NCBI GenBank assembly: GCA_017469745.1
Contig: JAFUFS010000051.1
Location: 15,222 to 47,221 of the forward strand
Length of the DNA stretch: 32,000 nucleotides
Direction: 5' to 3'
From: Bacteroidales bacterium
Lineage (GTDB): Bacteria; Bacteroidota; Bacteroidia; Bacteroidales; UBA932
Each line of letters starts with the position of its first letter. Positions within the stretch are counted from its first letter, which is position 1. A program made the position numbers and the translations under genes. Positions 10,772-32,000 of this stretch are shown here, piece after piece. Under the pieces are notes generated by a model that saw nothing but the letters and a program-made list of their open reading frames with translations, searched no databases and had not been told where the DNA came from.

Positions 10772-15768
<4,997 letters not shown>

Positions 15769-27312: not shown

Positions 27313-28175
27313 ATGCAAATCTTTGCCAACCTGCTCCACGACGATACTTTCAAGATTGTCGTCGGGGCGCCGGGAAATGAGACCTGTTCTGTACTTCGGA
27401 AGAAGGGGAGCAGTTCATCGTAGAGATGCAGTTCTCTGGCCAGGCTACCTTCAAAGAACGGATGCTGGTGTACGCGACGTATCCGATCCGTGCGCAGATG
27501 GACAAGAGGCTGAAAGAAATAGAGAAACTGACATCAGGGGATGAAGAGGCTGCGGAAGCGAGTGGCAGGAAGCCCGACAAGATGTATTACGGCTTGCACC
27601 CGATCTATGTTATCAGCCTTCTGAACTTCAGTCTTCGTCATGAGAACAATGAGGCGTTGGACGAAGGGATGATCAGCCGGTATTCGATTCGGAATGACCG
27701 CAATGGAGAACTGATGACAGATGCACTGCACTTCATCTTTCTGGAACTTGGGCGGTTGGGCTTGAGGAAGAGGGACTACGCAAAGTGCAGGACACCGCTT
27801 CAGAAGATGGCATATTCGTTGAAATATATGCACGAGCTTGGCGCTGCTCCAGCAGGGTTCGAAGATGGGTTTCAACGGATGCTTTACAAGGCCAGCGAGC
27901 TGGCCGGAATGACACAAGAACAACGAAGACAATACGATAGAGCCATGACAACAAAGATTGACATAATTGCCCAGCAGGAATATGCCAGCGAGGAAGGACT
28001 CGCCGAGGGGCTCAAAAGAGGCCAAAGACAAGGTCGCCAGGAAGGTCGCGCAGAAGGTGCAGAACTCAAGTCTGAGGAGATTGCACGAAAGATGATTGAT
28101 TCGAACATTCCATATGAAACCATTAGATTATGCACAGGCCTATCAGATGCAAAGATCCGTAGCCTTATGGAATAA
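27313..28175 (+). pseudogene. Rpn-family recombination-promoting nuclease / PD-(D/E)XK putative transposase, N-terminal internal deletion plus frame change
   Basis: ATG 27313 gives MQIFANLLHDDTFKIVVGAPGNE, the family-typical N-terminus, then runs out of frame. The main frame opens only after TGA 27378-27380 with DLFCTSEEGEQFIVEMQFSGQATFKERMLVYATYPI..., which is the nuclease core. Roughly 45-50 aa that normally lie between the two pieces are missing. The C-terminus (EGLAEGLKRGQRQGRQEGRAEG...IPYETIRLCTGLS) is typical of the family. Confidence 0.62.
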
Positions 28176-28257
28176 ATTGAGCAATCAAACAATTAGACTC
28201 ACATATCCGTGCTTTCTAGGGCTTTTTTGCCTAGCAACCGCACCTGTAATAACGAAT

Positions 28258-28292
28258 CCGTGCTGTCAAGGTAGACCGGCACGGTGTTTTTT
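28258..28292 (+). terminator. Candidate rho-independent terminator downstream of the Rpn-like pseudogene
   Basis: A CCGTGC (28258-28263) / GCACGG (28279-28284) stem with a 15-nt loop is followed by TGTTTTTT. The stem is short and the loop is large, so the call is weak. Confidence 0.3.
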
Positions 28293-28554
28293 ATTATGTC
28301 TGTTCGGCCCGTTGTTCAGATCATTGTTGATAACTTTTTTTCATGATCATCCGGATGCAAAATCCACATTGGAGGCCCTTAATTTGAATCATTTTGATTA
28401 GCCACTTGCAGAACCTTCATTTTCTGTCCTTTAAGTGTAACTTAAAGATTTGGAATTCACCCGAAAAATTCATAAAAATGCAAGACTTTGGCTTTGAAAA
28501 ATTAACCGCATTTTTAGGCAAAATTTATTAATCATAAAATTCAAAATTTGTAGT

Positions 28555-28689
28555 ATGAAAAAGAAACTAATGTATGAAGTTCCCGACGCGGAACTGATCG
28601 AGCTGAAAGCTCAAGGAGTCTTTATGGCCTCAGTAGAAGGCGAGTCTATTCAATCACTCGAGTATGACTCTGATGAGTTGAATTGTTAA
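28555..28689 (+). CDS. Unannotated 44-aa ORF (below the ORF-track size cut-off): MKKKLMYEVPDAELIELKAQGVFMASVEGESIQSLEYDSDELNC
   Basis: It runs from ATG 28555 to TAA 28687-28689, 14 nt upstream of the lipoprotein ATG 28704 on the same strand. Its composition matches the AT-rich island. It contains a leader-like Y-x-x-P-x-x-E-L-I-E-L motif. There is no independent evidence that it is translated. Confidence 0.3.
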   Translation: MKKKLMYEVPDAELIELKAQGVFMASVEGESIQSLEYDSDELNC

Positions 28690-28703
28690 TTATGTGTAGA
28701 CTT

Positions 28704-30782
28704 ATGAAAAAGAATTTATTCTTCATAGCTAGCACCATCTTTATGGTTCTTGCTGTTACTAATTGTTCTAAAGAGATTATTGATCCTTCAAATGATAATG
28801 ACATTCAAAAGGGATCTTCTTTTGAGCTTATTGCCACACCAGTTGAGACAAGAACAGAGAATGATGGCATGAACACTAAATGGGTCAGCGGTGACGCGAT
28901 AAATGTGTTCCATGCTGAAGAAGAAACTACTAACTATGTTAGTGATGGCGAATTTATAATCACAGATGTTTCTACCAATCGATTCCAAGGAACTGTTTCT
29001 GAAACTCTTGAAGCTGACAAGAAGTATGATTGGTATATGTTCTATCCTTATAGCTCCCATATTACTACTCCCGCTAATACGAACGCTGGTTATACTGTTG
29101 TTGGTAGTAGGAATAATGGAAATCAGACGCAGGCTGGTAATAATAACAAGGCCCATATTGCGGGCCCCAATTATCCACTTATTGGAGTACTTCCCTCTGT
29201 TGCAAGTACGGAGGTTCCTAAAGTGAGCGTGAATCAGGTGTGTTCCTTCATAGAGTTTAATGTTAAGAATACTTCGAGTGAGGACCTTGTCGTTAAAAGT
29301 ATTGTCTTTACAGCCACGGAAGACATTGTTGGAACGTATTATATAAATTTCATCGATCCTGAGAATGTAGTGTTCACTCCCAGTACCAATGATGATGGAA
29401 CGTATACTTATGCCTCTGAGAAGGCGGTCCTGAATGTTACTGATGGAGAGACAATTGCTAATGGTAATAGCGCAGCCTTTTATATTGGAATAAAGCCTTT
29501 CAGTGTTTCTTCCGGAACGTTGAAGGTTGCTGTCAATGGGTATGAGAAGGAAATAAATATCACCAAGAGTACCTCATTCTCCGCAGGAAAAATCAAGAAG
29601 ATAAACTTCGATTATAACAAGGAGGCGGAAGTATTACCTGTTTATGACAATACTTCGGCAGACTATTCGACTGGCTTCGAGGATGGCTTTACTGCCGGAA
29701 CAGCTTACAACAATACGCTTGAGAAGCTTGATGGTCCAGAGAATGAGCAGTGGGCATCATACTACGGAACCGTTTCCACGAGTTCAAAACTCAATGGTAA
29801 TAATTCAATGCAAATGCGTTGGTATACTTCAGCTGCTAAAAATCTTGGATATGCCCGTACAAACTTTAAAGTTGCTAAAGTTGGTTCTGTCTCTTTCTCA
29901 GCGGCCGCCACTAACAATTTGAATCTTTCTCTGTTCTACATGACTGAAAAAGATGAAGATTGGGTTCTAGCTCAAACGTTTACCCTGACATCGACATCGA
30001 AGCAGTATAGTTATGAGTTCTCTTCTCCTATTGAGAATGCCCAGTTGAAATTCCAGATTGCTCTTCCTGCGACAAATCCTTCAAGCAATTCGAATGTGCG
30101 AATAGATGATGTTGTCGTTTCTAAGGATGTACCTGTTGTGGAACTGGCTTCCATCGCCATTACTAAGAATCCCACCAAGACTACGTATACCCTAGGTGAA
30201 GAATTTGTTTTTGACGGAGAGGTAACTGCTACCTATTCCGATGGGTCTACAGTCGTTGTTACTGATGATATTGAATCTGACGGCGCAACAGTAGTAGCTA
30301 CTGTGGGTGTAGATAAGACCGTTACTATCTCTTACACTGACGGTGAAATTACTAAGACTTCTACGTATGAGATTACTGTAAACGACCCTGATGCTTCTTA
30401 TATAGAGGTTCCTTCTCAGACGATCACCTTCTCTGAACTTGGGTATGACAATGGTGCCGAGGTAAGCCAGGTTGATGGGACCAACTGTGGCATAAACTTC
30501 AATAAGGGAACAAATTCTAATACGCCGAAGTATTATACCTCAGGTAATGCAGTTCGTGCATATGGTGGAAACTTCTTTATTGTTACAGTTGAAGAGGGTT
30601 ATCAGATCAGTTCCATAGAGCTGACCTTTGGCTCTAGCGATGGCTCAAATGCTATTACCACGGATAAGGGAACATATTCCGATGGTAAATGGACTGGTTC
30701 CGTTCAGAATGGAGGTTCAGTTACCTTCACTATCGGAGGAACCACTGGAAATAGGAGAATCAGTTCTATTAAGATTAACTGA
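28704..30782 (+). CDS. Large surface lipoprotein: fimbrillin-like N-terminal region, beta-sandwich (choice-of-anchor/CBM-like) domain, bacterial Ig-like domain, unknown C-terminal domain
   Basis: ATG 28704 gives the lipobox MKKNLFFIASTIFMVLAVTNC (the track start TTG 28683 is less likely). The Ig-like segment is LASIAITKNPTKTTYTLGEEFVFDGEVTATYSDGSTVVVTDD...TVTISYTDGEITKTSTYEITV. It ends at TGA 30780-30782, which is in frame with the next ORF. Confidence 0.7.
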   Translation: MKKNLFFIASTIFMVLAVTNCSKEIIDPSNDNDIQKGSSFELIATPVETRTENDGMNTKWVSGDAINVFHAEEETTNYVSDGEFIITDVSTNRFQGTVSETLEADKKYDWYMFYPYSSHITTPANTNAGYTVVGSRNNGNQTQAGNNNKAHIAGPNYPLIGVLPSVASTEVPKVSVNQVCSFIEFNVKNTSSEDLVVKSIVFTATEDIVGTYYINFIDPENVVFTPSTNDDGTYTYASEKAVLNVTDGETIANGNSAAFYIGIKPFSVSSGTLKVAVNGYEKEINITKSTSFSAGKIKKINFDYNKEAEVLPVYDNTSADYSTGFEDGFTAGTAYNNTLEKLDGPENEQWASYYGTVSTSSKLNGNNSMQMRWYTSAAKNLGYARTNFKVAKVGSVSFSAAATNNLNLSLFYMTEKDEDWVLAQTFTLTSTSKQYSYEFSSPIENAQLKFQIALPATNPSSNSNVRIDDVVVSKDVPVVELASIAITKNPTKTTYTLGEEFVFDGEVTATYSDGSTVVVTDDIESDGATVVATVGVDKTVTISYTDGEITKTSTYEITVNDPDASYIEVPSQTITFSELGYDNGAEVSQVDGTNCGINFNKGTNSNTPKYYTSGNAVRAYGGNFFIVTVEEGYQISSIELTFGSSDGSNAITTDKGTYSDGKWTGSVQNGGSVTFTIGGTTGNRRISSIKIN

Positions 30783-30789
30783 AGCGGAT

Positions 30790-30808
30790 CCGGAGGCGGA
30801 ACCTCCGG
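30790..30808 (+). other. GC-rich RNA hairpin 7 nt downstream of the in-frame TGA
   Basis: CCGGAGG (30790-30796) pairs with CCTCCGG (30802-30808) across the loop CGGAA. This is 7 consecutive Watson-Crick pairs, 6 of them G:C, inside otherwise AT-rich DNA. Confidence 0.55.
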
Positions 30809-30854
30809 GGGCCAGACGGCTACAGCAATAGTAACTACTGGTGATGCTACGGAC

Positions 30855-32000
30855 GTGAGTTCGTCAGGGGCAACCCTGACCGCTTCTTTCTCGGGAGTTT
30901 CAACCGTCAATAAGCCAACAGACGTCTTATTCAAATACGGAACCTCTTCAGACAATTTGAATCAGACAATCGGTGCGATTGAGTCGATTAATTCGGGAAG
31001 CGGTGATTTTACTGCTATCTTGACTGAACTCAGTAGTGGCACGGCTTATTATTTCCAGGCCTACATGACGGTCTGGGATGAGGAGGCCAACGAGTACAAG
31101 ACGATTTCCGGTGACGTAATTAAGTTCGAAACAAACCCGAAAGGCGAGACTGGAGTCCAGCGTGGCTATTATGAGTTGCCATCTATGAGCACTGTAAAGA
31201 ATGGTGAGTATCTTGTAAGCTCCACAGATCCTAATACCTACTTTGCCTATCACATGTGCGCCGGCGGAGAAACATATTCATTCAACGGCAAACTGATTAC
31301 GGCACGTAATTACACGGTTTGTTTCAGTGGCGAAGACCATGTTGCATATTGGGTAGCGGCTCCTAGACATACCATGTATAATGGGAACAACAGGACAGAT
31401 AATTACAAAGCTGACCCGGACATCCCAAGTGATGTGCAATATCAGGCTGATAAGATAGGAGATGGTTGCAACAGAGGCCATATCTTAGGATCTGCTGAAC
31501 GAGGTGTCTCCAGTGCTACGAATAATCAGGTTTTCTATTTCAGCAATATAGCTCCGCAATTGCAGTCTGGTTTCAATACAGGCGGAGGTGGGTGGAATGA
31601 ACTTGAGGATTGGGTAGACGGTCAAGTATGTGCTGATACGCTCTATCAGGTTGTCGGTTGCTATTTCAAAGACTATACTGATGGCTATAAAAACAGCGTC
31701 AAGGCCAAGAAAATCAGCTACGGTGGCAGAACCGATGTCAGTTTCCCGACCATGTTCTACTACGTGCTGATCCGTACTAAAAAAGGTAATTCTGGCAAGG
31801 CGTTGAAGGATTGTTCAGCTGATGAACTCAAGTGTGCAGCTTTCGTCCGTTCGCACACCAATAACCTTAAGGGGCAGAAAGTTACTTCTGCAGAGATGAT
31901 GAGTGTGGCTGACCTAGAGAAAATAACGGGTTTCACCTATTTCGTCAATGTCCCTAATGCGCCAAAGAACACGGTCAATGCTTCCGATTGGGGACTGTAA
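30855..32000 (+). CDS. DNA/RNA non-specific endonuclease (Serratia NucA / Endonuclease_NS family, beta-beta-alpha-Me) preceded by an Fn3/Ig-like domain; probably continuous with the upstream lipoprotein frame
   Basis: The active-site region is GCNRGHILGSAER (RGH motif), followed by FYFSNIAPQ and GGGWNELEDW. The stop TAA is at 31998-32000, the window end. The only available start is GTG 30855. There is no signal peptide, and the frame is open back to the TGA at 30780-30782, so the true 5' limit may be 28704. Confidence 0.8.
   Translation: MSSSGATLTASFSGVSTVNKPTDVLFKYGTSSDNLNQTIGAIESINSGSGDFTAILTELSSGTAYYFQAYMTVWDEEANEYKTISGDVIKFETNPKGETGVQRGYYELPSMSTVKNGEYLVSSTDPNTYFAYHMCAGGETYSFNGKLITARNYTVCFSGEDHVAYWVAAPRHTMYNGNNRTDNYKADPDIPSDVQYQADKIGDGCNRGHILGSAERGVSSATNNQVFYFSNIAPQLQSGFNTGGGGWNELEDWVDGQVCADTLYQVVGCYFKDYTDGYKNSVKAKKISYGGRTDVSFPTMFYYVLIRTKKGNSGKALKDCSADELKCAAFVRSHTNNLKGQKVTSAEMMSVADLEKITGFTYFVNVPNAPKNTVNASDWGL

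Follow-up and report, generated by a model that had tools for sequence, protein, structure and literature searches.

In a 32,000-nucleotide stretch of DNA from a Bacteroidales bacterium (contig JAFUFS010000051.1, positions 15,222 to 47,221; hereafter the window), a surface-type lipoprotein open reading frame (ORF) and a nuclease module are separated by a single in-frame TGA, behind which the RNA is predicted to form three hairpins (H1, H2 and H3). From sequence comparison we interpret the two as one gene with a programmed leaky UGA, which would give a short lipoprotein and a long lipoprotein-nuclease, and we assign this reading a probability of about 0.72. It is directly supported by the anatomy of the locus, the conservation of the TGA, its frame and its context, the covariation of the RNA helices, purifying selection on the downstream modules, and the absence of selenocysteine (Sec) machinery and presence of release factor 2 (RF2) in the host genome.

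The in-frame TGA and its recurrence among relatives

The initial annotation of the window had placed the lipoprotein and the nuclease in one frame with only a TGA between them, and this was borne out. The TGA at 30780-30782 ends the lipoprotein ORF (28704-30782, start ATG 28704), and past it the same frame contains no other stop until TAA 31998-32000; read as one frame, lipoprotein and nuclease comprise 1098 codons. The TGA is followed in order by SGSGGGTSGGQTATA, a beta-rich domain and a DNA/RNA non-specific endonuclease (PF01223). As had also been noted, the nuclease has neither an ATG start nor a signal peptide: no signal peptide was found 3' of the TGA, and the first ATG, GTG or TTG is GTG 30855, corresponding to residue 25 of the downstream module. 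An AlphaFold model of the 405 residues after the TGA (32 homologues; mean predicted local distance difference test score (pLDDT) 78) gave a disordered linker at residues 1-11 and a first Fn3-like beta-strand at residues 16-26. GTG 30855 therefore lies within strand 1, and a start there would truncate this strand of the Fn3 fold, as the initial annotation had suspected. The nuclease domain matched PF01223 at 8.4e-29 (101 bits against a cut-off of 23), its nearest structures in Foldseek were EXOG, EndoG and Serratia nuclease (E 1e-12 to 1e-10), and G232, H233, N255 and N265 were invariant among 32 sequences of the module. By profile, modelled fold and its RGH His/Asn residues, the module is an Endonuclease_NS (PF01223) domain with predicted nuclease activity.

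A six-frame search of relatives, using the read-through product as the protein query, returned several matches spanning one TGA. We also took about 85 Fn3-nuclease loci of the same, very species-rich genus as a nuclease-based sample, picked irrespective of any hairpin, and walked upstream in frame from each nuclease; the data were mostly metagenome-assembled genomes. The results showed that 19 nuclease modules carried no signal peptide and that all of these lay directly behind a stop. This stop was TGA in 19/19, and each time a long lipoprotein ORF shared its frame (429-1384 amino acids (aa); one ORF cut by a contig end). The remaining loci had their own lipobox after TAA, TAG or TGA, or formed a continuous stop-free fusion, and none of the approximately 85 loci had a signal-less module behind an out-of-frame gene, a TAA or a TAG.

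Junctions from genomes of the genus and from metagenomes were pooled into a set of 94 distinct junctions. The TGA was present and in frame in 94/94, TAA or TAG never occurred at that position, and in none of the 94 did the downstream module have its own signal peptide. This module was an Endonuclease_NS in 87 junctions, was cut by a contig end in six, and was divergent in one, which kept the RGH motif; in the metagenome junctions it stayed open for 262-552 codons. Within 25 codons 3' of the TGA, an ATG was found in 1/94 junctions and any ATG, GTG or TTG in 38/94, while 56/94 had none. In four junctions (L104, L106, L108 and L121) the Fn3-like domain was missing and the TGA-H1-H2 linker ran directly into a nuclease domain from a different Endonuclease_NS subfamily; the signal is therefore tied to nucleases generally rather than to one module.

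The context of the stop codon was equally constrained. The codon before it was NAN in 94/94 junctions, compared with 37% A at this position for TGA-ended long ORFs of the host genome. The +4 base was A in 62 junctions, C in 19, G in 13 and T in none, whereas T was the commonest base (34%) after ordinary TGA stops of the host genome; the final spacer base before the hairpin was A in 88/94. UGA is the leakiest stop, and C or A at +4 and an A before the stop favour readthrough (PMC7026636, PMC5289835, PMC7918605); NAN-UGA followed by A, C or G belongs to the weak-termination type in bacteria and eukaryotes (PMC7026636, PMC5289835). The junctions thus show the leaky-stop context laid down by these rules, with UGA as the stop, never U at +4, and A before the stop (PMC7026636, PMC5289835).

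Pairs of downstream modules gave ratios of nonsynonymous to synonymous substitution (dN/dS) of 0.07-0.16 at dS values of 0.85-2. Synonymous sites are therefore near saturation, yet H1 is identical at synonymous sites. These ratios place the downstream modules under purifying selection; the nuclease modules behind the conserved TGA have diverged to about 30% identity. The Fn3 motif G[AV]T[LV]x[GA][ST] was in frame with the TGA in 65/65 junctions with seven linker lengths (22-29 codons), and the frame across the stop has therefore been kept through repeated insertions and deletions.

An orthologue of the locus (L122; JAFVGH010000099.1, 1720-4089) was found on a 4.1-kb contig of a sheep-abomasum metagenome-assembled genome. 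Its lipoprotein is 78% identical to that of the window. The junction sequence ...SIKIN-TGA is retained, H1 differs by a single change in the loop, and H2 is compensated (GAUG-GAAA-CAUC). The Fn3 domain of the orthologue is of another subtype and far less similar than the upstream part; the modules therefore seem to have been exchanged at the joint. Such exchange is compatible with readthrough and may help to explain the uniformity of H1. The contig was binned as 'Fibrobacter sp. RGIG5144', a label that is probably a binning error.

Hairpins behind the stop codon

The GC-rich hairpin that the initial annotation had placed at 30790-30808, 7 nucleotides (nt) after the TGA, was confirmed as the core of H1 (CCGGAGG-CGGAA-CCTCCGG), and a U.G pair lengthens the stem to 8 bp (30789-30809). 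TGA-N6-TCCGGAGGCGGAACCTCCGGGG was identical, synonymous sites included, in 9/19 junctions of the nuclease-based sample, and variant GC hairpins (CCGGCG-GCGG-CGCCGG, CCGGCG-GAGG-CGUCGG and CCGCC-GGG-GGCGG) occupied the H1 site elsewhere. The TGA is thus conserved together with the hairpin, which was the outcome that the initial annotation had proposed to look for among related loci.

We searched 401 genomes of the genus for the H1 pattern alone, with at most 1 mismatch and without the TGA in the query. The search returned 27 matches, compared with four for the reversed control pattern, and a TGA stood exactly 9 nt upstream of H1 in 22/27 matches and in 19/20 exact matches. The TGA-less exact genome match (L115; G285:C9:16878-19897, around base 1500, reverse strand) is a 20-nt H1 in another reading frame; by eye, it falls near the N-terminus of a lytic-transglycosylase-like lipoprotein ORF (MKKEVHTIAVLV...GLMQMMPETARWLG). 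In metagenomes the exact H1 22-mer was found on 72 contigs, with a TGA at -9 in 69/72, and the three TGA-less matches were linkers of unrelated high-GC proteins.

For H1 and H2 we aligned 22 same-register junctions, excluding ten with other hairpin types. H1 was paired in 99% of cells and was invariant apart from two A-to-G changes that keep G.U pairs, while the joint H1+H2 structure was paired in 99.2% of cells with 33 compensatory cells. In H2, changes on both sides were seen at 3/4 pairs, with the stems GGCC/GGCC, GAGG/CCUC, GGGC/GCCC, GGAG/CUCC, GGCA/UGCC, GAUG/CAUC and GUAG/CUAC. The H1+H2 covariation score was 0.345, compared with 0.095 for shuffled alignments (0/500 reached it) and at most 0.058 in slid controls. 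H2 was also paired in 62/69 metagenome junctions, with many different stems. Its changes force covarying linker amino acids (E..L, D..I, V..Y, G..S, G..A and G..P), which argues for selection on the RNA and not on the peptide.

H3 begins 81 nt after the UGA, in codons of the conserved S-x-GATL-x-G motif, and its codons GGGGCAACCCTG were found in 48/65 junctions. About 99% of cells were paired at its inner 7 pairs, three of which showed 8-22 changes on both sides; the covariation score was 0.281 against 0.111 shuffled (0/500). Compensatory covariation, suggested by the initial annotation as a check on the hairpin it had named, was therefore present in H2 and H3, which it had not seen, and not in the near-invariant H1.

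The 45 nt of the linker folded at -19.2 kcal/mol in TGA loci and -11.8 kcal/mol at matching protein positions in TGA-less homologues (n = 19 vs 60, related sequences; Mann-Whitney p = 4e-8), and the H3 window at -20.3 kcal/mol in TGA loci and -8.1 kcal/mol in TGA-less homologues, which have the same protein motif and no hairpin. No Rfam family matched the element at E up to 10. An intrinsic terminator was rejected, as H1/H2 are followed by GGCCAGACGG without a T run; in the window, H3 has a weak T-rich tail (CGCTTCTTTC) flagged by a simple terminator scan, and such a tail was present in 6/65 junctions only.

In junctions with SSPTPQATA linkers, nested hairpins were seen by eye 10-45 nt after the UGA, with an outer stem CUCCG...CGGAG, an inner stem CUAC/GUAG and the inner-stem variants CGACCG/CGGUCG and CAC/GUG. 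These more distal hairpins may represent another structural form of the signal. The features of the locus are collected in Table 1.

Table 1. Positions of the predicted features of the lipoprotein-nuclease locus in the window
Feature	Position	Strand	Basis
Lipoprotein ORF of 692 aa, surface type (short isoform), with Ig-like and other beta domains	28704..30779	+	ORF call, N-terminus MKKNLFFIASTIFMVLAVTNC
Signal peptide with lipobox Cys21	28704-28766	+	N-terminus MKKNLFFIASTIFMVLAVTNC-SKE, judged by eye
-1 codon AAC (Asn)	30777..30779	+	Second base A in all 94 junctions
In-frame UGA, proposed recoding site; next base A (30783)	30780..30782	+	Conserved at 94 junctions
6-nt spacer AGCGGA from UGA to H1	30783..30788	+	Constant N6 in all H1-motif junctions
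Gly/Ser/Thr linker (SGSGGGTSGGQTATA), which would be translated only upon UGA readthrough	30783..30827	+	AlphaFold: residues 1-11 pLDDT <50
H1, 8 bp UCCGGAGG/CCUCCGGG, loop CGGAA	30789..30809	+	RNA fold; near-invariant sequence
H2, 4 bp GGCC/GGCU, tetraloop AGAC, abutting H1	30810..30821	+	RNAfold, covariation
Fn3-like beta-sandwich	30828..31130	+	AlphaFold strands, residues 16-116, pLDDT 80-95; weak Pur_ac_phosph_N (Fn3-like) match
H3, 7-bp core GUCAGGG/CCCUGAC, GNRA loop GCAA, within SSGATLT codons	30863..30880	+	Fold, covariation
DNA/RNA non-specific endonuclease domain, His-Me finger; NRGH motif, His at 31479-31481	31278..31958	+	PF01223
TAA stop of the putative long (1098-codon) isoform	31998..32000	+	ORF reading

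Proposed readthrough and competing explanations

We infer the occurrence of readthrough, its level, the inserted residue, the stimulation by the hairpins and the purpose of the arrangement from the features described above. Most ribosomes would probably stop at UGA 30780-30782 and release the lipoprotein of about 690 aa, which would be exported via its own signal peptidase II (SPII) signal peptide and lipidated. In some ribosomes a near-cognate tRNA would read the UGA, most likely inserting Trp, as happens at leaky UGA codons of E. coli, and translation would continue in frame through the Gly/Ser linker, the Fn3-like domain and the EndoG/Serratia-type nuclease. The nuclease of the resulting product of about 1100 aa would then leave the cell on the export signal and lipid anchor of the upstream protein. 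RF2 and the near-cognate tRNA would compete at the UGA, and the hairpins would shift the balance, with the long form minor and the short form major. The proposed signal comprises the weak context NAN-UGA-A/C/G, the 6-nt spacer, the 8-bp GC-rich H1, the stacked 4-bp H2 and the GNRA-looped H3 about 80 nt on. With the UGA in the A site, the spacer would bring the foot of H1 to the mRNA entrance and helicase site of the ribosome, about 13 nt away from the first base in the P site. Known stimulators of frameshifting and readthrough share this geometry. The arrangement may serve to keep down the amount of a nuclease that could do harm, or to hold surface proteins that only bind and those that bear the nuclease at a set ratio. 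Decoding of leaky UGA as Trp is documented in E. coli and Salmonella (PMC7918605), 3' structures stimulate readthrough in viruses and eukaryotes (PMC7026636, PMC5289835, PMC7918605), and their role in readthrough is covered by PMC7026636.

The initial annotation had offered three explanations, and regulated readthrough is the only one of them that fits the comparative data. A fusion gene of 1098 codons recently inactivated by a nonsense mutation, or an error of sequencing or assembly at positions 30780-30782, would suit a single in-frame stop in a draft assembly of 66 contigs whose relatives include intact fusions. However, this TGA recurs at this domain boundary across independent assemblies, in 94 distinct junctions that include the 78%-identical sheep-abomasum orthologue, and is never TAA or TAG; the downstream frames are long, open and under purifying selection (dN/dS 0.07-0.16) even where modules are only about 30% identical, and the RNA structure is specific to TGA-bearing loci. 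We consider mutation or error almost certainly incorrect. The proposal that the UGA encodes selenocysteine with H1 as its SECIS element, or that TGA is reassigned in the lineage, seems just as hard to credit, even if an in-frame UGA closely followed by a stem-loop is a hallmark of bacterial selenoprotein genes. In the 98.5%-complete host genome, Aragorn detected no tRNA-Sec or tRNA(UCA), RF01852 gave nothing above its cut-off, selA was not found, and the best selB model match (195 bits, a 418-aa open frame) fell below the 242-bit cut-off and is EF-Tu-like by length. Selenocysteine was therefore rejected on the lack of tRNA-Sec, selA and an above-cut-off selB (for selD no search was made) and on the position of the UGA in a linker that is modelled as disordered, lies between domains and offers no redox site. 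Reassignment was ruled out as well: TGA ends 258/876 long ORFs of the host genome (about 30%), and an intact RF2 gene with the SPF motif is present (G000:C28:36392-37582). The initial annotation had likewise judged global reassignment unlikely from other genes that end in TGA, such as GH2 at 12709-12711, and the 1017-aa ORF on the minus strand indeed ends there in TGA.

Were the lipoprotein and the nuclease two genes, with the nuclease translated by termination-reinitiation or from a non-canonical start and the hairpins regulating coupling or mRNA stability, the ATG, GTG or TTG codons found within 25 codons in 38/94 junctions, such as GTG 30855 in the window, could serve as starts, and tight coupling of neighbouring genes is frequent in bacteria. 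Reinitiation needs no shared frame, however, and yet the frame is shared in 94/94 junctions and in 65/65 across seven linker lengths. Moreover, 56/94 junctions offer none of these codons in the first 25 and an ATG occurs in only one, a signal-less product would leave a non-specific nuclease in the cytoplasm, and GTG 30855 would cut strand 1 of the modelled Fn3 domain. A GC-rich structured region is also the opposite of the Bacteroidota start context, and the pattern of always TGA and never T after it would be left unexplained. Two separate genes thus strike us as very doubtful. The TGA and the palindromic H1 could also mark the edge of an exchangeable nuclease cassette, the module being silent or active after DNA rearrangement. 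The invariance of H1 beside diverse upstream partners (83 C-termini, and only 9/94 junctions sharing the last domain of the window's lipoprotein), the orthologue with a 78%-identical upstream part and an Fn3 domain of another subtype, the low GC of the locus (40-47%) against 53% in the genome, and an adjoining PD-(D/E)XK transposase-like ORF all fit such a boundary. A silent cassette, however, needs neither a frame shared with the preceding gene nor a dN/dS of about 0.1, H2 and H3 covary as RNA helices and not as DNA repeats, and each locus has one cassette, with no donor array seen. Shuffling of modules could go on alongside readthrough and is no substitute for it, and the cassette boundary as an explanation in itself appears quite improbable. 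Finally, the three-hairpin module might act in the manner of a SECIS element, but for a standard amino acid, bound by a dedicated factor or by the ribosome, with the UGA decoded efficiently and perhaps conditionally. H1 is near-invariant in sequence (UCCGGAGG-CGGAA-CCUCCGGG, N6 after the UGA) and in this resembles a sequence-specific recognition site, while H2 and H3 vary and keep their pairs. We regard this possibility as unlikely.

Several points weigh against programmed readthrough. In the literature searched, hairpin-stimulated, Sec-independent readthrough is not known to have an experimentally established precedent in bacterial cellular genes. The statement of the initial annotation that 3' structures stimulate readthrough holds for viruses, eukaryotes and bacterial SECIS elements and is not established for Sec-independent readthrough in bacteria. 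Continuous stop-free fusions exist in relatives (L020, L023-L025), and the stop is therefore not needed for a working fusion. Four of the 19 junctions in the nuclease-based sample, those with SSPTPQATA linkers (L094, L078, L019 and L092), have no H1, which is therefore not obligatory, and the near-invariance of H1 could come from recombination at a shared joint. In addition, the junction loci are mutually related, so that counts and p-values overstate independence, and the pattern searches retrieve only, or favour, the commonest hairpin type. In H1-bearing junctions, on the other hand, the TGA was never replaced by a sense codon despite the intact fusions elsewhere, which argues for selection that limits the long form or keeps the short form.

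Host genome, known systems and significance

The host genome of the window is a draft metagenome-style assembly of 2.38 Mb in 66 contigs (53% GC, 98.5% complete). It has 17 SusD/RagB genes, for which only B. thetaiotaomicron matched among the control genomes, and the organism therefore belongs to the Bacteroidota. A scan of all ORF pairs found no other pair of this kind separated by an in-frame stop in the host genome; the single junction is therefore not a genome-wide habit. For the H1 sequence type, TGA-N6-H1 was present in 24/401 genomes of the genus and was not found in 200 genomes sampled across 166 other genera of the order. H1 had no match in viral contigs, which speaks against a phage origin. 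The RF2 gene is a single uninterrupted ORF, without a programmed +1 frameshift site; such a site is present in the RF2 genes of many bacteria. The only tRNA-Trp(CCA) found (G000:C43:35914-35985) has a G.U pair atop its 5-bp anticodon stem. Weakening of this top pair has been reported to raise UGA reading (PMC13092985).

The upstream ORF has the attributes of a Bacteroidota SPII surface lipoprotein, namely a signal peptide ending in a lipobox Cys, assigned by eye from the N-terminus, in a Bacteroidota host, and the protein is probably surface-exposed. A weak Big_3 match covers residues 489-559. At other junctions, the four upstream partners with recognised Pfam domains contain Fn3, BACON, PKD, CHB_HEX_C and an OB-fold nucleic-acid-binding domain. 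The partners are diverse, with 83 different C-terminal pentapeptides among the 94 junctions, and the last domain of the window's lipoprotein is common to 9/94 only.

Across window positions 28000-32000, which hold the lipoprotein-nuclease locus, GC was 35-47%, compared with 50-58% in the 6 kb before and 53% genome-wide, and H1 and H2 form a GC-rich island within the low-GC locus. This GC contrast suggests that the locus was horizontally acquired. Directly 5' of it lies a 249-aa ORF at 27426-28175 (+) with a match to PF12784 (PD-(D/E)XK nuclease family transposase; 1.4e-13). The match covers profile positions 101-227 only, and the ORF may therefore be truncated. Such a transposase-like neighbour is consistent with mobile or recombination-prone surroundings.

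Full-text literature searches found no description of a UGA-hairpin-nuclease system, and a general survey of in-frame stops in prokaryotes makes no mention of hairpins, nucleases or Bacteroidota (PMC7918605). The proposed element resembles viral and eukaryotic readthrough stimulated by 3' structures, as in the murine leukemia virus (MuLV) gag-pol pseudoknot, alphaviruses, Colorado tick fever virus and Drosophila hdc (PMC7026636, PMC13517186; Firth et al. 2011 cited there). In both, the stop is leaky (often UGA) and its context weak, a spacer of about 6-8 nt leads to a stable structure and further extended 3' structure, and a minor, C-terminally extended isoform carries an enzymatic domain, which here is predicted. 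Unlike these cases, the junction described here lies in a chromosomal, cellular gene of a bacterium and would act on the 70S ribosome and RF2; unlike the MuLV-type pseudoknot, it consists of the simple hairpins H1, H2 and H3. Programmed stop-codon readthrough is viewed as a phenomenon of viruses and eukaryotes, save for selenocysteine and a few context-only leaky stops.

Like SECIS/SelB recoding (E. coli fdhF), the locus has an in-frame UGA with a conserved stem-loop within about 10 nt inside the coding sequence, and annotation splits the gene. In contrast, it has no selA, selB or tRNA-Sec in its host genome, the UGA falls in a flexible linker, and decoding is proposed to be a competition of a near-cognate tRNA with RF2. 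The Q-beta coat protein, extended to A1 by insertion of Trp, and a Bacillus subtilis enzyme are examples of Sec-independent UGA readthrough on bacterial ribosomes, likewise with a minor, distinct long isoform and an influence of the base after the stop. Neither is known to depend on more than the context of the stop. The Bacillus subtilis enzyme is reportedly levansucrase. The junctions described here differ by a conserved, covarying three-hairpin element at about 100 cellular loci. PMC7026636 lists the Bacillus subtilis case, citing Chambert et al. 1992, as an enzyme extended by readthrough. The nuclease itself resembles the Endonuclease_NS surface nucleases (Serratia NucA/EndoG/EXOG) in its PF01223 profile, His-Me finger and RGH motif, and its same-genus relatives are lipoproteins with their own signal peptide. 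Unlike those nucleases, it lacks both a start and a signal, and its only way to the surface would be as a continuation of the lipoprotein before it.

If our interpretation holds, chromosomal genes of bacteria would have their first structured readthrough signal that is independent of Sec, present in about 100 genes of a gut or rumen Bacteroidota genus, and its mechanism would become testable on 70S ribosomes. Annotation pipelines would be splitting these genes and reporting a signal-less nuclease with a wrong start. A compact element of about 40-100 nt that fixes an isoform ratio could be put to use in Bacteroides as a tool for gene expression; if the SECIS-like reading were true, the element would be a portable recoding cassette of bacteria, found with nuclease modules in every case. 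For the organism, programmed readthrough suggests a way to limit the amount of a nuclease that may damage the cell itself, with the signal and lipid anchor of a different protein serving for its export; scavenging of extracellular DNA or RNA, or turnover of biofilms, are the likely uses.

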